A stretch of 10,179 bases of DNA from Janibacter sp. GXQ6167 (GTDB lineage: Bacteria > Actinomycetota > Actinomycetes > Actinomycetales > Dermatophilaceae), in contig NZ_JBGFSK010000017.1 in NCBI RefSeq assembly GCF_041365945.1, forward strand, positions 2,555 through 12,733, read 5' to 3'. The position numbers were made by a program, and so were the translations under genes. Position 1 is the stretch's first letter. Every line of letters begins with the position of its first letter. Positions 1-8,256 of this stretch are shown here, in pieces. A model generated the notes under the pieces. It was not told the DNA's origin. It made no database searches and saw only the letters and a program-made list of their open reading frames with translations.

Positions 1-537
1 GCATCTTCGGACATTACATTCACCTTCTTCTGCTTTCTCTCACTGCCGCCCTTCCCCATGTGCCCGGCTTTCCCGGCCTCGGAGTACTACGACGGCTCCG
101 CCCCACCCGCACCCTTCGGCTGGCAACGCACCTATCCCCACCAATGCGGGGAGCGGAATGCGGATGGTTCCCACGTTCACTGTTGTTCGGTTGACGGGCG
201 AGGCGTCCGGCTTTACCCCTGCGGCATCGTCGTGGCTACGCCGTAGACCTTCACCACGACCTGCCGGACCCGACACATACCACCGTTCCGACAGTTCCCC
301 ACCCGCCACGACCATCAACGATGGCCCCGACAAGCGGTTACGCACCGCAAACCAGCCCCGATCCACCGGGTTAGAGCTGGGCGACGATCAAGAGGCTTTA
401 CGACACCGGTTCCTCTCGTACACCTTCCCGCCTTGCTCACCAGACACGGCCCATCCGGTAGTACTGGACCGTCCTGACTATGTCACGGCTGCTCCCACCC
501 ACCCCAGGCGTTCCCCCAGGACAGGCTGCCGTCAGCT

Positions 538-1123
538 TCACTCGGCCGCTACGACGGCCAATCGATCAAGGTCTCTCACCTCCATCCGATACAACAGCGC
601 CTCGTGGCGCACGACGTGCTCGTCGACACCGATCGTGGTGACCCCGTCGAACCGACCAGGATCGTCGATCAGGCGCCGCTTGCCCTCCGCGAGCACCGCA
701 GTGTTCGCGGCGCTCCAGGAAACCCCAAGACCGGCGGCGACACGGGTCACGGTGAGGTGGTCGACGACGATGCCCCGCAGCGCCCACTCCACGCCGAGGC
801 GGGAGATCTTCGCTCGTGGCGCGGCGGCGCGAGTCATGTCCCGCCGCCACGTCCGCCGGCAGTGCGCGCACCGGTAGCGGCGGACCCGGACCAGAAGCGT
901 TGTCGGCCTATGCCCGAACGGCTCATGCGCGAGTCGACGCGTCACCGTGTCCCGCGACACACCCCTCCGCCCCGCACTTCCGACACCAGGGGTCCACCTC
1001 GACCGACCGACACTCGATCATCGCCCGGTCCCGCTCGAGCAGCTGGCCGACCGCTTCGAGCCCGAGTTCATCGAGGCGGCAGAACGTGGTCAGGTCAGGG
1101 GTCGCGAAAGTAGGGTGGAGCAC
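538..1123 (-). pseudogene. ISL3-family transposase, N-terminal ~195 codons only, interrupted by at least one frameshift (near 925-960) and 3'-truncated.
   Basis: Two overlapping minus-strand ORFs (923..1123 and 538..960) together reconstruct a contiguous ISL3 transposase N-terminus across different frames. No ATG lies in frame upstream; the track's M at 1123 is a GTG. An alternative MMEVLHARHPER... start lies in another frame, which suggests further decay. Confidence 0.7.
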
Positions 1124-1202
1124 GTCGAGGTCTTTCGGGATGGCGAGCGTGAAGAACTTCCATCATCCGGGAGACCTCGACCCCTACCCGGCTGCCAACG
1201 CG

Positions 1203-1236
1203 CTCACCCGACTACACCCTCATTCGTGAAGAGCCC
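1203..1236 (-). repeat. Terminal inverted repeat (outer end at ~1236) of the ISL3-family element. Its exact inner boundary is uncertain.
   Basis: RC of plus strand 1228-1236 = GGGCTCTTC, followed by ACGAATGAGGGTGTAG. The integrase reading frame reads through this sequence into a stop (…IGLFTNEGVVG*), marking the insertion junction. Confidence 0.45.
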
Positions 1237-1653
1237 GATAAGACGGGCGACGTTGCGGCTGACGAGTTCGTCGCGCATCGCGCGGGTCAGGGCGGCGGAC
1301 AGTACGGTGCGGAACTTCTGTGCGGTGCGGATTGAGTGGCCCTCGTCGAGCAGCGCGCAGGCGGCGTTCTGCACGTCGCGCACGGTGAGCTGGGTCAGGC
1401 GCTTGCTGCCGATGCGAGGAAGGATGTGCAGTCGCACGACGCCCTCGTATCCCCGTGCGGTGTTGCGTCGGTTGCGGCGCGGCACGACTGTCTCTAGCCA
1501 CTGCTGCAGATAGCCGGCGACCGTGACCTGTGAGTTCGGGGTCAGGATGCCGCGGCCCTCGTGCCGCGGCCCGCCCGGGCGCTTGCGTCGCCTTGCGACC
1601 CGCCGGATCGGCTCGAAAAGACGTTCTGTGGTATATCTATTACGAGAGGCCAT
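1204..1653 (-). pseudogene. Tyrosine recombinase / phage-type integrase, N-terminal core-binding (SAM-like) domain only. The native sequence spans ~1237..1653. The catalytic domain is missing because of the ISL3 insertion.
   Basis: Translation from ATG (RC of 1651-1653): MASRNRYTTERLFEPIRRVARRRKRPGGPRHEGRGILTPNSQVTVAGYLQQWLETVVPRRNRRNTARGYEGVVRLHILPRIGSKRLTQLTVRDVQNAACALLDEGHSIRTAQKFRTVLSAALTRAMRDELVSRNVARLI... This matches the integrase N-terminal core-binding domain pattern: YLxxWL, hydrophobic-rich helix (RLHILPRIG), and SxxTxxKxxxxLxxALxxA. The ORF then continues into the IS terminal repeat and stops. No R..HxxR..Y catalytic domain is present. Confidence 0.7.
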
Positions 1654-1714
1654 ATACAGGATGCACCTGGGCCTTGTCTGGGGGCTACCCAGATCGAGTC
1701 TGGAGGTGTACGGC

Positions 1715-2329
1715 GTGGCCGCGCGAGTCGTCGATGTGCGTTGTCCGGGATGCGGGAGCGCCTGGAGCACCAACCAGCAGTTCTGCCAGTACTGCGGTCG
1801 CCAGGTGCTGATCAGCTCGATGTCCGACCTGATCAGCCTGGAAGCGCGCGACCTCAAGAAGCACGTCCGTACCTACGAGGACGCGCTGGACGAGGGCGCC
1901 GATGATCCGAGCGTGCATGCGGCGCTCGGCATGTGCCTGCTCAAGCTGGGGCTGCGCGACAAGGCGCTGTCGCACTTCGAGGATGCGCTGCTCGATGACA
2001 TCGAGAACTCGGAACCGTACTTCTACGCCGCCGTCGCGTCGCTGGGTGGCAAGAAGCCGTTCCTGGTTCCGCTGGCTGGCATCCGCCGCGCGGAGGAGTA
2101 CCTCACGGCGGCGCTGCGGCTCGAGGAGCGCGGAATCTACGCCTACCTCTACGGGTACATCCGCTTCGACTACTACGAGCGCAAGTCGCTGAACGTCGAG
2201 CCGTCGTACCAGCACTACCTGCAGCAGGCAGTGCTTCGCGGTGTGACCGATCTGGACATCCAGACGCTGTTCGAGCTGCTGGAGATCGTCCCTTCGTCCG
2301 CTTCCATTCCGACCAGCGTTTCCGCCTGA
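1715..2329 (+). CDS. Zinc-ribbon protein with a C-terminal TPR-like, all-helical domain (204 aa from the GTG at 1715). It is possibly a YdjG-like component.
   Basis: It is the first gene of the co-directional operon. GGAGG at 1702-1706 lies 8 nt upstream of the GTG at 1715. Starting here avoids overlap with the integrase fragment on the opposite strand. The N-terminus has the ribbon CPGCG-x9-FCQYCG (1742-1800). The remainder (…ALGMCLLKLGLRDKALSHFEDALLDD…EEYLTAALRLEERGIYAYLYGYIRFDYYERKS…) is TPR-like helical. The 1523..1714 extension in the ORF track would overlap the integrase start and is RP-rich, so I reject it. Confidence 0.7.
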   Translation: MAARVVDVRCPGCGSAWSTNQQFCQYCGRQVLISSMSDLISLEARDLKKHVRTYEDALDEGADDPSVHAALGMCLLKLGLRDKALSHFEDALLDDIENSEPYFYAAVASLGGKKPFLVPLAGIRRAEEYLTAALRLEERGIYAYLYGYIRFDYYERKSLNVEPSYQHYLQQAVLRGVTDLDIQTLFELLEIVPSSASIPTSVSA

Positions 2330-2365: not shown

Positions 2366-3061
2366 ATGGCCATCAACTATGAGCGCAACAAGAAGTACTT
2401 CAAGCAGTCCAGCCCCAAGGCCGGCATCATCCTGATCGTGATCGGCCTGGTGCTGACGCTCGCCCTCCCCGAGGCGGGCAAGCTCGTCGGCATCCTGGGC
2501 ATCCTGGGTGGCGCGGCGCTGATCTACTTCCAGTTCGCGGGCAAGCCGAGCGACGCGGACATCGACTCGGACGCTGCTGCCGCCATCGCGGACGTGAAGA
2601 AGCGCGCGCTGGGCAAGCTCGGTCTGGACGAGGACGAGGTCAAGCTCATCGACCCGGTGATCGTTCACGGCTACTACTACAAGAACATCGCCTCGGGCGT
2701 GCAGGTCAAGCTCGGCAAGGACCGCGTCTTCCGTTCCTCGAACTACGAGGGCGTCGTGCTGTTCTTCAGCGAGCACCAGCTGCACGCGTTCAAGTTCCAG
2801 TTCTCTCTCGTCTCGCCGCAGGAGAGCCGCGAGCAGACCGACGAGTACTTCTACAAGGACGTCGTGTCGGTGGCGACGCAGTCGGAGACGTTCAAGATCA
2901 ACGACATCAAGGGCAACAGCCAGCAGGTCAACTTCGAGGAGTTCAAGCTCACCACCACGGGTGGCACCTCGATCACTTCGTCGATCCGCGACGAGGGCTC
3001 GGTCAGCCGCGTCATCTCCGGCGCGCGCAGCCTGATTCGCGAGAAGAAGATCGCGTCCTGA
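2366..3061 (+). CDS. Membrane-anchored protein (231 aa). It has an N-terminal hydrophobic hairpin (AGIILIVIGLVLTLAL…LVGILGILGGAALIYF) and a soluble ~170-aa domain. It is possibly YdjH-like.
   Basis: ATG at 2366 is preceded by GAGAGAGG (2348-2355), and it lies 36 bp after the stop of the upstream gene. The protein is unusually Lys-rich (K > R) for a high-GC host, yet it keeps high GC3 (AAG, TTC, TAC codons). Confidence 0.75.
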   Translation: MAINYERNKKYFKQSSPKAGIILIVIGLVLTLALPEAGKLVGILGILGGAALIYFQFAGKPSDADIDSDAAAAIADVKKRALGKLGLDEDEVKLIDPVIVHGYYYKNIASGVQVKLGKDRVFRSSNYEGVVLFFSEHQLHAFKFQFSLVSPQESREQTDEYFYKDVVSVATQSETFKINDIKGNSQQVNFEEFKLTTTGGTSITSSIRDEGSVSRVISGARSLIREKKIAS

Positions 3062-3079
3062 CCCCGAGTTCTCTGCGTG

Positions 3080-3112
3080 CCGGGGCCGGTCGGCAGTCGC
3101 CACCGGCTCCGG
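3080..3112 (+). promoter_or_regulatory. Intergenic stem-loop between the membrane-protein gene and the ATPase gene (11-bp stem, 11-nt loop). It may be a partial terminator/attenuator or an RNA-processing element.
   Basis: CCGGGGCCGGT (3080-3090), loop CGGCAGTCGCC, ACCGGCTCCGG (3102-3112). The arms are complementary except for one G·U pair. No U-tract follows, so it is not a classical intrinsic terminator. Confidence 0.3.
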
Positions 3113-3156
3113 CACACCAATTCCGCTGCCCGAGCGTGACGTGAGGAGTGTGCCGT

Positions 3157-5841
3157 ATGCCCGCAGGCGACGCGCCCCTGACGTTCACGCCTCTCGCGCA
3201 GGGTGAAGTAGCCGCTGCTACGGTGGTCGAGGTCGTCCGCATCCCGCACGTCTCCGTGCTGGGCGATGATCCGGCTGCCGAGCTGGTGCAGCAGTCCAAG
3301 CGGGACTTCGTCAGCCTGCTGTTCGAGGCGTACCAGTCGTACCGCGGACAGTACGAGGACGGCCCCGACCGAGCTAGCGACTGCGCTCTGGAACTGCTTT
3401 GGCAAGCACACCCCATTCAGGGCCAGCCGCACGCCGCCGACCTCACGCTATTCATCATCGTTCGCGCGATCGGCGCGAACCGGGACGACGCAGCGGCGGT
3501 TGTCAACGAGCTGCACGCTGTCGTGATCAGCGCGCTCACGCTCGGCGGCTTCGACTACGCAGATCGTCCTGCCTCCGCGATCGGCGCCCAGGCGGCGGAA
3601 CGGTCGGTTGCGCTCGTGAAGGAGGAGTGGATTGAGAACCTCGGCAACCAGATCCTGCCGAGCGCCTTCGCCTTCCACCGTATCCCCACGGGCAGCCGTG
3701 ATCTCTCACGTATCGCCAGCGCCCTAACCGAGGTGCCCGGTGCGTCCCTCTCGGTTCAGCTGATCCCGGCGACACTGGAGCCTGACGAGCGGACTGCTAT
3801 CGAGCAGCTGACGCTGGCGCTCACGACCCTCGCCAACGGTGTGACGGATCAGTCGATCGGTACCGTCAGCTTCACCGCGGCGAAGCGCCTCGCGGAGATG
3901 TACTCGTATCTGGAGGGGCACAAGGACTCGCCCCTGTTTCTGTTTAACGTCGTCGTCTCCGGGCCGAAGCTCGCCGTGCCGGTGATCGCCAACCGGGTGC
4001 TCGGTCACCTCTCCGCCGACGCCGAGGTAGGCGCGCTGGCGGCACGCTTCGTCGACGCCACAGCCCTGGTGCCACGAGGCGATGCGTCCTTCGTCGCTGC
4101 ACCGTGGCAGCTGAACGAGACGCTGCTCGACCAGACTCGTGATCCGTCGCTCTGGGCGGCGGGCCGCAATCCCGGTGAGGCATTCTACCGGCTGCCGTTC
4201 CTGCTGACGGCATTCGAGGCATCGGAGTTGTTCCGTCTGCCGATCGGCAGTGACACGGTCGGCGCCGGGCTGACGGTGAACACCACGACCCGGCACTCGC
4301 GCAACTACTCGGCCGGCGTGATCGGGAGCTCGAGCATCGAAGCCGGGCGACTCGCCGGGGCGGCCGAGGTCTCGATCGGGTTCGGGCATACCGACCTGAC
4401 CAAGCACGCTTTCGTCACGGGGACGCCCGGTTCGGGTAAGACGACGTTCACGGTCGGGCTGCTCGACCGGCTCTGGCACGAGCACGGCATCCCGTATCTG
4501 GTGATCGAGCCGGCGAAGAACGAGTACCGGGCGCTGATCGAGACGACGCCGGATCTGCAGGTGTTCACCCCGGGCAAGGATCATCTGTCTCCGCTTGTGC
4601 TGAACCCGTTCCTGCCGCCAGCGGGCGTGCGGGTGCAGAGCTACAAGTCGACCCTCAAGACGGCGTTCGCAGCCGCGGTCACGATGACGAGCCCCCTGGA
4701 CAAGATCTTCGAGGACGCCCTCTCAGCCACGTACTCGCGGTTTGGCTGGTTCGATGCCGACACAGCCGCCGATGGCCGTGAGGTGTTCTCTATCCGCGAC
4801 TTCCTGGCCGTTTTCCAGGAGACCTTCGTCCGCATCGGCTACACCGGAGACGCGGCCAACATCGGACGAGCAGGCCAGGTGCGCCTGCAGAGTCTGGTTG
4901 GCCTGTTCGACACCTACCCTTCGATCCCTGTCGAGGATCTGCTGTCGAAACCCACGGTAATCGAGCTGGCAGGGATCGAGAACAGCGACGACAAGGCCCT
5001 CTACATCGCGCTCATCCTGCTGCAGGTCCTCGCCTACGTGAACGCCAACGTCGCCGGCGACGGGAAACTCAAGCACGTCCTCCTGCTCGAAGAAGCCCAC
5101 GTCTTGCTCGACGCCGACGACGCCAGCGGACCGGGCGAAGCGGACCCCGCCGCGATTGCGAAGAAGCTGCTCAAACGCATGTTGGCCGAGATCCGCTCCT
5201 ACGGCGTCGGCATCATCGTGGCCGATCAGTCGCCACGCAAGGTCGGCTCGGACGTGGTGGCGCTCACGAACATCAAGCTCGGGTTCCGGCTGGTCGAGGC
5301 CGCAGACAAGGAGATCCTGGCCGAGAGCACCAACATGAGCGACGCGCAGCGCGAGCGGCTGGCGCGGCTCCGGCCGGGCGAGGCACTCCTGTTCTACGAC
5401 CGCCTCGAAGACCCCGAGGAGATCGCCACAGCCGACTGGCGCGCCCAGCGCGGCATCCCGACGTTCGTGTCCGATGAGGAGATCGCCCGAAAGGTCACTT
5501 ACTGGCAGCGGCACCCGGAACTGCTCATGCCATACCCGGAGAGCGCCTACATCGGGGGCTGGGACGCCTCGGTTGCCGGTGCGGGCAAGGAGATCGCCCG
5601 GCGCCTCTTCGCCGCGCACGTCCCGGCCGGCGATGTCGGCGTCAAGAGATTCGGCAGCATCTACCGGCAGCTCGATGCGTTCATCGCCGCCGAACTTCCC
5701 GCGTCGATCCCGAACACGCCGGCCCTGCGGCGAGCGGTCAAGGTCAACTTCCTGCGGCTGGTCAAGTACGAGTCGCAGATCCCACTGTCGGACGCCACGA
5801 TCCACAAGACCCTCGAAGCCGAGAGGAGCCGCACAGCATGA
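3157..5841 (+). CDS. HerA/FtsK-superfamily (DUF87 / HerA-like) P-loop ATPase, 894 aa. The ~420-aa N-terminal domain is unassigned.
   Basis: GAGGAG (3143-3148) lies 8 nt upstream of the ATG at 3157; the track's GTG at 3148 has no spacer. Walker A is GTPGSGKTT (~4420-4446), followed by YLVIEPAKNEY and LVLNPF; HerA proteins have …IFDPHGEY…INPF in the same positions. Walker B is HVLLLEEAHVLL (~5074-5100). The C-terminal motif GVGIIVADQSPRKVGSDVVALTNIKLGFRL matches the HerA 'RKYGvgl.lvtQrPsel…' region. The stop overlaps the next start (ATGA at 5838-5841). Confidence 0.85.
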   Translation: MPAGDAPLTFTPLAQGEVAAATVVEVVRIPHVSVLGDDPAAELVQQSKRDFVSLLFEAYQSYRGQYEDGPDRASDCALELLWQAHPIQGQPHAADLTLFIIVRAIGANRDDAAAVVNELHAVVISALTLGGFDYADRPASAIGAQAAERSVALVKEEWIENLGNQILPSAFAFHRIPTGSRDLSRIASALTEVPGASLSVQLIPATLEPDERTAIEQLTLALTTLANGVTDQSIGTVSFTAAKRLAEMYSYLEGHKDSPLFLFNVVVSGPKLAVPVIANRVLGHLSADAEVGALAARFVDATALVPRGDASFVAAPWQLNETLLDQTRDPSLWAAGRNPGEAFYRLPFLLTAFEASELFRLPIGSDTVGAGLTVNTTTRHSRNYSAGVIGSSSIEAGRLAGAAEVSIGFGHTDLTKHAFVTGTPGSGKTTFTVGLLDRLWHEHGIPYLVIEPAKNEYRALIETTPDLQVFTPGKDHLSPLVLNPFLPPAGVRVQSYKSTLKTAFAAAVTMTSPLDKIFEDALSATYSRFGWFDADTAADGREVFSIRDFLAVFQETFVRIGYTGDAANIGRAGQVRLQSLVGLFDTYPSIPVEDLLSKPTVIELAGIENSDDKALYIALILLQVLAYVNANVAGDGKLKHVLLLEEAHVLLDADDASGPGEADPAAIAKKLLKRMLAEIRSYGVGIIVADQSPRKVGSDVVALTNIKLGFRLVEAADKEILAESTNMSDAQRERLARLRPGEALLFYDRLEDPEEIATADWRAQRGIPTFVSDEEIARKVTYWQRHPELLMPYPESAYIGGWDASVAGAGKEIARRLFAAHVPAGDVGVKRFGSIYRQLDAFIAAELPASIPNTPALRRAVKVNFLRLVKYESQIPLSDATIHKTLEAERSRTA

Positions 5842-7019
5842 GCGACTACGGCACCGACATTGCAGACGCCCCCGTCGACACCGGCGCGGACGTCAGCGTG
5901 CCCGATACGACCGACTACGCCGACGAGCCGGTCGACCTGGCCGAGACCCCGCCCGAGTCGGAGGCGCCCGAGGCCGAGGAGGCGCCGCCCGCCGAAGACC
6001 TCTCGGAGCCCGCAGCAGATGAACTGAGCGGCACGGCGGAGACGCCGGCGGATGCGGAGGCACCCGTCGACCTGGGCGCGGCCCCGGAAACGGCCGACGC
6101 CGCCCCGGAACAGCCCCAGGACTGGCAGGAGGGCGAGGTCGTCGATCTCGGCGACGACGCTGCCCCCGACGCCCCGCAGGAGGACGAGACCGCCGAGGCG
6201 GACGATCCTGCCGGGCGCGACCTGGGTGATCCCGACCTGGCCGACAGCCCGGAGGCCGAGGCTCCCACGGATAGCGCCGGTGAGGATCTGACGACACCGA
6301 CGGACGACGAACCGGGCGCCGGTGATGCGCCGACTGACGCCGACGAGCAGGTACCTGAGGCGGCGGAGATTGAGCCCGAGGCCGCAAACGACGTGACGGA
6401 TGCCGAACCCGAGCCCAGGGTCGATGAGTTGACAGAGGCGGCCCGGGATGAGGCCCGCCCCGCCGACGAGCTGCGCGCCGAGTACTACGCCGACGTGGCT
6501 GATGTGCTGGCCGATGACACACCATCCGACGCCGAGCCGGTCGAGACGCAGGACACTCCCGGAGCAGACGCTGCCGAGGCGCCGGAGTCGAGCGATCACG
6601 CGGACGCCGCCAATGACCGCAGCAACTCCCCAGAGAACGAGGCACTGACCTCGGCGCTAGCCGAGAAAGGCCTGTCGCTGGAGCCGGTCGATCGCTTCGA
6701 CTACAGCGACAACCCGGTTCTCGGCTACCGCGAGTCCGCCCCGCCCGAAGACGTCGCGTACGCCGTCAACGCCTGGAACGACGAGATCGCGCCCGGCATC
6801 GCGGCCGGCGCGACCCGTGAGGACTTCGCCGCCTACGACCAGGAGCACGGCCTCGAAGGGCAGCGGCAGCTGGCCGGCGTCTACGACTACATGCTCGGCG
6901 GCGACGCGATCAAGAGCGGCGGAGAGCGCGAGGACGGATCGCTCGACGTCACCGGCGGCAGGCACCGCCTGGAACAGGCGCGTCTGAACGGCGTCCAGTA
7001 CCTGCCCGTGAGGAAGTAG
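5838..7019 (+). CDS. Acidic, low-complexity protein (393 aa). It has a ~270-aa D/E/A/P-rich, presumably disordered N-terminal region and a ~120-aa C-terminal globular domain.
   Basis: Translationally coupled by an ATGA overlap, with GAGAGGAG at 5821-5828. The frame shows clean high-GC codon usage (GAC/GAG/GCC/CCC), while the alternative frames are Arg/Pro-rich junk. The C-terminus contains …VYDYMLGGDAIKSGGEREDGSLDVTGGRHRLEQARLNGVQYLPVRK. The GGxHRxxxAxxxG…PV stretch is reminiscent of ParB/Srx box II, but that is tentative. Confidence 0.65.
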   Translation: MSDYGTDIADAPVDTGADVSVPDTTDYADEPVDLAETPPESEAPEAEEAPPAEDLSEPAADELSGTAETPADAEAPVDLGAAPETADAAPEQPQDWQEGEVVDLGDDAAPDAPQEDETAEADDPAGRDLGDPDLADSPEAEAPTDSAGEDLTTPTDDEPGAGDAPTDADEQVPEAAEIEPEAANDVTDAEPEPRVDELTEAARDEARPADELRAEYYADVADVLADDTPSDAEPVETQDTPGADAAEAPESSDHADAANDRSNSPENEALTSALAEKGLSLEPVDRFDYSDNPVLGYRESAPPEDVAYAVNAWNDEIAPGIAAGATREDFAAYDQEHGLEGQRQLAGVYDYMLGGDAIKSGGEREDGSLDVTGGRHRLEQARLNGVQYLPVRK

Positions 7020-7056
7020 CCGACCCGGCATCCGATCCGACGAAAGCGAACACCGT

Positions 7057-8256
7057 ATGAAGATCTACGACGTCATCAAGAACGAGACCGGCCTTCTCAA
7101 CGACGGCCTGGGCTCGAAGGCCGTGCTGGCGTGGAAGTTCACCGGTGAGGACTTCAACGACAACACGCAGCTGATCGTCTCCGAATCGGAGGAGGCGATC
7201 TTCATCCGCGACGGCATCGCCGTGGCGACCTTCGGCGGCGGCCGCTACACGCTCAACAGCAACAACCACCCCTTCATCGGCAGGCTGAGGAACCTGCTCT
7301 CCGGCGGGGTGAGCGCGTTCAGCTCGCGGGTGTACTTCGTCAACATCGATCACAAGTTGGAACTGCTGTGGGGCACCGACAGCCCGATCCAGCTCCGCGA
7401 CCCGGTCTGGAGCCTGCAGACCAGCGTGCAGGCGCGCGGCTCGTACTCGATCCAGGTGACGGACTCCAAGAAGTTCCTGATCAAACTGCTCGGCACCAAC
7501 ATCCAGGTTTTCGACGAGCAGCAGCTCGCCGGCTACTTCCGCAGCGCCTTCTCGCAGCACATCCGCGGACAGATCGCCCGCTACATCCGCGACTCCGGCC
7601 AGGAGATCCTGGAGATCACCTCGGACATCGAGCTGCTGGCCGAGCAGCTGCACCCGAGGCTCGCACCGCTGCTGGATGAGTACGGCGTGAAGCTCGTCAA
7701 CTTCTACATCGCCGCGATCGACATCCCCACCGACGACCCGAACCGCCAAGTGCTGGAGAACTCGATCGCACAGAAGCAGGCCAAGCTGCAGAGCGCGCAG
7801 GGCGATAAGGCCGTCATGGGGCTGCTCGGGGAAGACTGGGCCAGGCAGCAGTCGGCCACCATCCTCACCGAGCTCGCCAAGAACCCCGGCGCGGGTGGCG
7901 TGGCTTCCGCGGGTGCCGCAGCAGGCGTTGGCCTGGCTGCGGGCAGCGTCTTCGGGGAGATGGCGACGCAGATGTTCACGCGCCCCGTCCAGCCCGCAGG
8001 CGACCCGATGGCTGGCAATGTCGGGCGCAACCGCACATCGCGCTTCTCGCCCGCAGAGCCTGCCGCGCCGGCCGCCGCCGAGACGTGTCCGGGCTGCGGC
8101 GCGAGCGTGGCGGCGGGAGCGAAGTTCTGCCCGGAGTGCGGCAACCGTCTCGCACCTCAGCAGGTGCCCTGCTCGGGTTGCGGAACCGCAATCGCGAGCA
8201 CGGCCAAGTTCTGCCCCGAATGCGGAACGCCGAACAACCAGGGAGCATCCTCATGA
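7057..8256 (+). CDS. SPFH/Band-7-family protein (COG4260 / PF13421-like, 'putative virion core protein' group) with C-terminal tandem (double) zinc ribbons, 399 aa. YdjI-like.
   Basis: The N-terminal ~250 aa match the COG4260 pattern as I recall it: MKIYDVIKNE…, GGRYTLNSNNHPFIG, YFVNIDHKLELLWGTDSPI, ARGSYSIQVTDSKKF. A Gly/Ala-rich linker follows. Then come two tandem ribbons, CPGCG-x9-FCPECG and CSGCG-x9-FCPECG (8086-8229). The stop overlaps the next start (ATGA at 8253-8256). Confidence 0.85.
   Translation: MKIYDVIKNETGLLNDGLGSKAVLAWKFTGEDFNDNTQLIVSESEEAIFIRDGIAVATFGGGRYTLNSNNHPFIGRLRNLLSGGVSAFSSRVYFVNIDHKLELLWGTDSPIQLRDPVWSLQTSVQARGSYSIQVTDSKKFLIKLLGTNIQVFDEQQLAGYFRSAFSQHIRGQIARYIRDSGQEILEITSDIELLAEQLHPRLAPLLDEYGVKLVNFYIAAIDIPTDDPNRQVLENSIAQKQAKLQSAQGDKAVMGLLGEDWARQQSATILTELAKNPGAGGVASAGAAAGVGLAAGSVFGEMATQMFTRPVQPAGDPMAGNVGRNRTSRFSPAEPAAPAAAETCPGCGASVAAGAKFCPECGNRLAPQQVPCSGCGTAIASTAKFCPECGTPNNQGASS

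Follow-up and report, generated by a model that had tools for sequence, protein, structure and literature searches.

The first 612 nucleotides of the window, read on the minus strand, are almost certainly the 5' part of a bacterial group II intron, a mobile element that retrohomed into the site GVDEHV/WRHT of an ISL3-family transposase (the slash marks the insertion point) and likely belongs to the endonuclease-less, mostly actinobacterial Rh.js.I1/g1 lineage. By the window we mean the whole stretch of 10,179 nucleotides from Janibacter sp. GXQ6167 (contig NZ_JBGFSK010000017.1) that was analyzed. A preliminary description of the same DNA had left the origin of its first 537 nucleotides open between an rRNA-derived fragment, a structured RNA of a mobile element (for instance a group II intron), and an assembly chimera. 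The second of these is borne out by homology to sequences upstream of ltrA genes, by a conserved fold, by pairing between the EBS1 and IBS1 segments and by exact excision from a full-length relative.

Transcripts of group II introns fold into six domains, of which domain I recognizes the 5' exon via EBS1-IBS1 pairing and also offers the docking surface for the catalytic domain V. The introns are excised as lariats and, with a reverse transcriptase (RT)/maturase, reverse splice into new copies of their target site. An intron with its own RT/maturase would have reverse-spliced (retrohomed) in this manner into the conserved ISL3 site. It is an already known kind of element, an ordinary mobile group II intron that sits inside an insertion sequence (IS), and as one more copy of such an intron it carries small biological weight. 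Standard pipelines annotate group II introns through the ltrA gene, and where a window ends before ltrA and domain V, the 5' half of the ribozyme stays unannotated; none of the D1-D4 models in Rfam detects this actinobacterial intron lineage, widespread as it is.

Homology to group II introns and limits of the block

Comparison of window positions 1-640 (minus strand) with plasmids by blastn matched 112 plasmid records. The alignments begin at query positions 28-30, which correspond to window position 612, and end at the start of genes annotated as "ltrA group II intron reverse transcriptase/maturase". Matches to the Rfam model Intron_gpII (RF00029, domains V/VI) lie directly after ltrA, with 52.7 bits in L002 and 40.3 bits in L003 (numbers beginning with L designate matched loci). 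A conserved 23-mer outside the disputed sarcin-ricin-like motif (GGGGCGGAGCCGNCGTAGTACTC) was used as a pattern against species-representative genomes and returned at least 120 loci, nearly all of them actinobacterial. Identity to the window across all 612 nt is 96.6% for L078 (Tessaracoccus massiliensis) and for L033 (an actinomycete MAG), both of which occupy the same ISL3 site as the window intron.

The intron of L078 is complete, with a length of 2180 nt. Its ORF product (IEP) of 488 aa starts from the homologous ATG with MSEDAPVNVG and contains RVT_1 (E 2.5e-38) and GIIM (E 1.4e-18) domains, with no match to an HNH/En endonuclease domain in the domain search. Domain V, GAGCCGGAUGCGGUGAAAGUCGCACGUCCGGUUC, is canonical and has a GAAA loop, domain VI is predicted to form a long helix with a single bulged nucleotide, and the intron ends in ...CCCAAC. 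The flanking exons read ...LGVDEHV/WRHTRHGDKYVTVIIDL (the continuation is also given as WRHTRHGDKYVTVIIDLTP). When joined, they restore an ISPfr2-like ISL3 transposase ORF with a 200-aa product and align, over 600 nt without a gap or break, with intact annotated ISL3/ISPfr2 transposase genes (about 82% identity). This exact excision, together with the alignments to intact ISL3 genes, means that the boundaries are exact and that alleles of the site without an intron occur. The left window edge cuts off domain V, domain VI, the greater part of the IEP and the 3' exon from the window copy, which is putatively complete and active. A retron or another RT-associated noncoding RNA is an unlikely reading, given that in the relatives a group II maturase domain is part of the RT and domain V comes after it.

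At the other end, the motif GUGCG occupies 612..608 of the window directly after the ISL3 codons ...GVDEHV, the 5' exon ending with ...TTIGVDEHV at 613. From 612 downward on the minus strand, the continuation of the ISL3 N-terminal ORF reads GTGCGCCACGAGGCGC, a typical group II intron 5' end. The same start, GTGCGCC, was found in 74 of 98 relatives, and TTGCGCC in 19 of 98. The block had been taken to end at 537, at a presumed truncation point of the ISL3 transposase; 537/538 turns out to be just the stop of a read-through ORF, and the real junction is at 612/613. The features of the intron and of the surrounding DNA are listed in Table 1.

The 19 UUGCGCC starters are distinct family members (loci L004-L123) and form a coherent subgroup within the alignment, the canonical start being GUGCGCC. 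At several loci, two same-strand intron 5' segments lie about 0.7-2.2 kb apart (Table 1); these may be tandem, nested or truncated copies.

Table 1. Positions of the intron segments, the host insertion sequence and neighboring genes in the window, followed by paired intron segments at other loci (positions of those loci).
Feature	Position	Strand	Basis or remark
Group II intron, 5' part	1..612	-	Domains I-III, beginning of domain IV, initial 14 nt of IEP ORF
5' splice-site motif GUGCG, intron positions 1-5	608..612	-	Read from sequence
Low-GC domain IV loop, Shine-Dalgarno-like AAGGUG and IEP start codon	1..30	-	Read from sequence
Conserved segment GGGGCGGAGCCGUCGUAGUACUC	82..104	-	(Near-)invariant in alignments; by position, 5' side of domain III
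Kappa three-way junction of domain I	405..426	-	Column composition, pairing, architecture
d' 5' strand	426-420	-	Pairs with 201-206
Junction A	419	-	Unpaired
C-GAGA-G extension mini-hairpin	418-413	-	Pairs with itself; one C-G pair and GNRA loop
GAA	412-410	-	Unpaired
d'' 5' strand	409-405	-	Pairs with 207-211
3' strands of d'' (211-207) and d' (206-201)	201..211	-	Contiguous, 0-nt linker
Lineage-specific extension hairpin, domain I	297..320	-	Holds the second "23S-like" string CGTTGATGGTCGTGGCGGGTGGGG
EBS1, UAUGUG, intron 334-339, terminal loop of domain I hairpin	274..279	-	Complementary to exon end
IBS1, CACGUC, last 6 nt of 5' exon	613..618	-	Pairs with EBS1 loop
Intron host: left end and N-terminal coding part of ISL3 (ISPfr2-like) IS	613..1235	-	Domain match, homology limits
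231-aa membrane-like protein (unannotated)	within 2366-8256	+	
897-aa HerA/DUF87-type ATPase	3148-5841	+	
393-aa protein (unannotated)	within 2366-8256	+	
SPFH/Band-7 protein with double zinc ribbons	7057-8256	+	
Paired intron 5' segments, L122	516-1080 and 1246-1811	same strand	
Paired intron 5' segments, L026	6679-7243 and 7407-7689	same strand	
Paired intron 5' segments, L090	2706-3262 and 4894-5404	same strand	

The lower GC content at the very start of the window, remarked on in the preliminary description, was confirmed, with 0.517 in 1-60 against 0.648 in 61-537, and amounts to 0.425 in 1-40. The plus strand of 1-600 is C-rich and has a strongly negative GC skew throughout. What lies at the low-GC start is the loop of domain IV, in which the intron ORF has its ribosome-binding site and start codon: the reverse complement of 1-30, GAAGAAGGTGAATGTAATGTCCGAAGATGC, contains a Shine-Dalgarno-like sequence followed by an ATG that runs off the window. 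This ATG lies at 14..12 of the minus strand, and 14..1 read ATG TCC GAA GAT GC, which gives MSED and two bases (GC) of the fifth codon. The earlier statement that no frame of the block encodes a credible protein is accurate insofar as its ORFs are short or Arg/Pro/Ser-rich; the block is not entirely non-coding, since 14..1 of the minus strand is the start of the IEP.

Conserved fold of domains I-III

RNAalifold applied to 99 sequences yielded a consensus domain I-III fold of 145 pairs, with compensatory changes in 102; the covariation term is -23.5 kcal/mol. Judging from its position in the fold of an independent run, the segment at 82..104, which served as the search pattern mentioned above, probably forms the 5' side of domain III. 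The seven Rfam group-II-D1D4 families gave no match in 1-1300, either at gathering thresholds or at E<=10, and no curated RNA model confirms domains I-IV of the window intron. The missing match weakens nothing essential, since the seven families were built from other intron classes.

One hairpin of domain I contains the string CGTTGATGGTCGTGGCGGGTGGGG (the reverse complement of 297-320), which the preliminary description had loosely likened to a segment of 23S rRNA. This likeness found no support, as the stretch is a variable hairpin in all relatives, and L001 and L002 lack it altogether. When 185,579 species genomes were searched for an exact 25-mer of the hairpin, none contained it.

The sarcin-ricin-like motif is a kappa junction

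The motif on the minus strand that had drawn attention to this block, placed earlier at about 407-422, is real: the 16-mer GTACGAGAGGAACCGG is present exactly at 421..406, one base from the earlier position. It had been judged unlikely to arise by chance, and dinucleotide-preserving shuffles agree, with 0.01 matches expected even when two mismatches are allowed. Compared with the 14-nt consensus of the sarcin-ricin loop, AGUACGAGAGGAAC (PMC4574749), the 16-nt string holds 13 of the 14 bases.

Within the intron, GUACGAGAGGAACCGG, the sarcin-ricin-like string, comprises the kappa element of domain I and the ends of the helices d' and d''. We read it in this way because it forms part of a covarying three-way junction that matches the kappa architecture of the ai5gamma intron. 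In group II introns of solved structure, a split GNRA-like fold made up of the junction A and the GAA adenosines touches G-C pairs of domain V. In Sc.ai5gamma, kappa is located at a three-way junction in which d' and d'' are coaxial across a 0-nt linker (Donghi et al. 2013, PMC3575829), and A12 and G21-A23 surround a short extension helix that is closed by C14-G19 and capped by GAAA (PMC3575829). In the structure of the Oceanobacillus iheyensis intron, the kappa adenosines contact two G-C pairs of domain V (PMC3575829). By analogy, a kappa-domain V contact would be expected in the window intron as well.

Column composition and pairing in the alignment of 99 sequences fit this architecture. The junction A and the C that opens the extension hairpin are found in 99/99 sequences each, the loop conforms to GNRA in 94/99 and the closing G is present in 98/99; in the GAA columns, G occurs in 94/99 and both adenosines in 99/99. 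The tetraloop is GCGA in 56 sequences, GAGA in 24, GUGA in 7 and GCAA in 6. The 12 pairs of d' and d'' are standard pairs in 99.3% of cases, with 93 cells changed on both sides (an alignment count). None of 500 shuffles reached the observed value (0/500), and sliding the partners by 1-3 columns left 31-53% paired. Columns 237/503 contain AU 52 times, UG 30, UA 9 and CG 7, and columns 238/502 contain GC 69 times and AU 28, without unpaired cells in either; the window has U at 237 and G at 238. The column that corresponds to the "bulged G" of the sarcin-ricin loop is A in 28/99 sequences, and each of these has a compensating U, not C, in the partner about 210 nt away.

The same string can also be drawn as a local sarcin-ricin-type bulged-G hairpin (GGU-G-UA-C[GAGA]G-GA-A-CC) with the same non-canonical pairs as the sarcin-ricin loop, and one could suppose that this hairpin forms at least transiently and that it, and not kappa, is under selection. 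The base 5' of the G is A in 53/99 relatives, which lengthens the match to AGUACG.GAGGAACCG. The invariant G-G/C-C pairs speak neither for nor against such a hairpin. However, columns 237/238 covary with 503/502, as expected for a long-range d' helix and not for a bulged G and its neighbor, the d'' strand CCGG(U/C) covaries with columns 496-500, and the arrangement is the same as in experimentally solved kappa junctions (PMC3575829). Selection for the local hairpin is thus very unlikely. We give still less credence to a related idea, prompted by the reproduction of up to 16 nt of the eukaryote-type sarcin-ricin loop, that the kappa junction might pass through the bulged-G fold as a transient folding intermediate or be recognized by factors that bind the sarcin-ricin loop; translational GTPases, ribotoxins and RNA N-glycosidases would be candidates. 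If true, the folding or stability of the intron would thereby be tied to the translation machinery or to toxins.

Another possibility is that the block is a fragment or pseudogene of LSU rRNA and its motif a relic of an archaeal/eukaryotic-type sarcin-ricin loop acquired by transfer or recombination. The exact 16-nt string with its 13 of 14 consensus bases, and the low chance expectation given above, would suit such an origin. Against it, models of bacterial, archaeal and eukaryotic LSU_rRNA gave no match in 1-1300 at E<=10. Rfam likewise gave no matches in the whole window at gathering thresholds, and nothing inside 1-612, hence nothing in the originally delimited 1-537, when 1-1300 was searched at E<=10. 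The whole 612 nt are homologous end to end to sequences upstream of ltrA, and the motif is conserved in about 98 intron relatives, where its flanks pair, with compensatory changes, with a strand about 210 nt downstream. The replacement of the "bulged G" by A with a compensating U in the distal partner, the greater frequency of GCGA over GAGA in the tetraloop and the location of the second rRNA-like string in a variable insertion also contradict an rRNA relic. The preliminary description had itself regarded the rRNA likeness as coincidental if Rfam and LSU matches beyond the short motif were lacking and a BLAST match placed the block inside a known protein-coding gene or IS family; we found no Rfam or LSU match, and homology puts the block into a known mobile-element family, which answers to this combination. 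An rRNA origin therefore has practically no probability left.

The kappa junction of the intron and the sarcin-ricin loop of 23S/28S rRNA are identical over 13-16 nt, including the C-G-closed GAGA tetraloop flanked by UA and GAA. They differ in context and fold, since the flanks of the window motif form long-range helices of a three-way junction. The bulged G and GAGA are invariant in the sarcin-ricin loop, whereas both vary freely in the intron family, and the surrounding rRNA homology is missing around the window motif. The identity is a convergence on the arrangement A / C-GNRA-G / GAA and not a sign of common descent. An identity of 13-16 nt to the most conserved rRNA motif can thus arise by convergence of small RNA building blocks, and short-motif matches of this kind should not be read as rRNA ancestry.

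Exon recognition

Pairing between EBS1 and IBS1 is the interaction that defines target recognition by group II introns. The EBS1 loop covaries with the last six exon nucleotides across about 98 relatives, in many unrelated insertion sites; examples of EBS1/IBS1 combinations are TGACAG/CTGTCA in L001, CACCAGC/GCTGGTG in L027 and TGCTCG/CGAGCA in L036. In the window, UAUGUG forms five pairs with CACGU and leaves a C/U mismatch at exon position -1. At the same site in L078, L080 and L097, IBS1 is CACGUG, and the G at -1 would give a G-U pair. UUGUCG at intron 280-285 (window 333..328) is a candidate EBS2 by its complementarity to exon positions -13..-8; no convincing covariation of this candidate with the exons was seen among the relatives.

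Relationship to known introns

Endonuclease-less bacterial group II introns with a natural homing site in an IS transposase gene are exemplified by RmInt1 of Sinorhizobium meliloti, a class D intron. RmInt1 differs from the window intron in ORF class (D versus g1-like), in host IS family and in host phylum.

Among the plasmid matches, L002 (NC_008270 187340-187935) is the named intron Rh.js.I1. Rh.js.I1 is located on plasmid pRHL2 of Rhodococcus jostii RHA1 (CP000433 185762-187934) and belongs to group g1 (Toro and Martinez-Abarca 2013, Table S2, PMC3552965). Introns of this group are endonuclease-less (RT-X), have mostly actinobacterial hosts and measure 2160-2210 nt; membership is defined by an IEP (RT-X, no D/En) that clusters with those of Rh.js.I1, Ca.ac.I1 and others in RT/X-domain phylogenies (PMC3552965). 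The window intron and Rh.js.I1 have the same 5' boundary (CP000433:187934 in the latter), and domains I-III of Rh.js.I1 are homologous to the window 5' region at about 70% nucleotide identity. The kappa sequence is present in Rh.js.I1 as AGUACGAGAGGAACCGG. Its IEP is 55% identical, over the full length, to that of L078, the closest full-length relative of the window copy. The L078 IEP has the RT and X regions and lacks an endonuclease domain, as in g1, and the 2180 nt of the L078 intron fall within the g1 size range. Based on similarity to this one named member, the window intron likely belongs to g1. The two differ in their targets, an IS1380-family transposase region in pRHL2 versus the ISL3 transposase in the window, and in the extra domain I hairpin at 297-320 of the window lineage.

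The kappa-zeta systems of Sc.ai5gamma and of the Oceanobacillus iheyensis IIC intron have the same junction A, short C-G-closed extension hairpin of the GNRA type, GAA and 0-nt d'/d'' linker as the window family (PMC3575829). The extension stem of Sc.ai5gamma, going by the numbering in that paper, has two pairs, compared with a single C-G in the window family, and its loop is GAAA, compared with usually GCGA or GAGA. An 11-nt zeta receptor motif was not identified in the window intron.

The ISL3 host and neighboring DNA

The ISL3 side of the junction bears on the last of the earlier proposals, that the block is an assembly chimera in which unrelated DNA was fused, at about 537-570, with an ISL3 transposase cut short. 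The coding signal breaks off abruptly, and GC content and GC skew shift, beside the truncated gene, which gave this proposal some appeal, yet the junction is at 612/613 and not at 537, ...VDEHV is followed by GTGCGCC in assemblies that are independent and come from other organisms, namely L078, L033, L087 and L105 as well as in L080 and L097, and the ISL3 reading frame of L078 resumes exactly after 2180 nt. The recurrence of one junction in several independent assemblies rules a chimera out for all practical purposes.

The host of the intron is identified by a Zn_ribbon_ISL3 match in the ORF at 538..960 (minus strand) and by homology to the ISL3 copies of L078 and L087, which ends at 1235. Compared with L078, the window shows 96.6% identity in the intron and only 70.7% in the ISL3 portion (613-1235). 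The presence of the intron at the two sites is accordingly much younger than the divergence of the IS copies from one another, in keeping with recent retrohoming, or horizontal spread, of the intron into a conserved site that diverged IS copies share.

The N-terminus of the ISL3 transposase is spread over two overlapping minus-strand frames, one at 923..1123 ending with ...CRKCGAEGCVAGHGDASTRA and the other at 538..960 starting with MSRDTVTRRLAHEPF... This suggests a frameshift near 940-960, in which case the host transposase may be a pseudogene independently of the intron.

At 1207-1235, the ISL3 end ctacaccctcattcgtgaagagcc looks like an IS terminal repeat. A tyrosine-recombinase gene with a Phage_int_SAM_3 match (1204-1857, minus strand) appears to be cut off at its C-terminal side where the ISL3 homology ends (1235). 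If ctacaccctcattcgtgaagagcc is an IS terminal repeat, three nested events would be recorded here: an integrase gene interrupted by ISL3, which was in turn interrupted by the group II intron.

The ISL3 leader contains a strong local hairpin at 1122-1239 (plus strand). Weak and almost certainly spurious Rfam matches at E<=10 were found in the leader at 837-1239, to mir-36_2, Ms_IGR-7, a snoRNA and IMPDH. The 1122-1239 hairpin gave those to mir-36_2 (27.8 bits, E value 0.003), Ms_IGR-7 and IMPDH RNA, all under the gathering scores. These three are very probably spurious matches caused by the inverted repeat of the IS end.

Beside the disrupted integrase gene lies a set of plus-strand genes at 2366-8256 (Table 1), with a lower GC content of about 0.58-0.61 around 2200-2500. 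This gene set could be an integrated island, possibly one related to defence.
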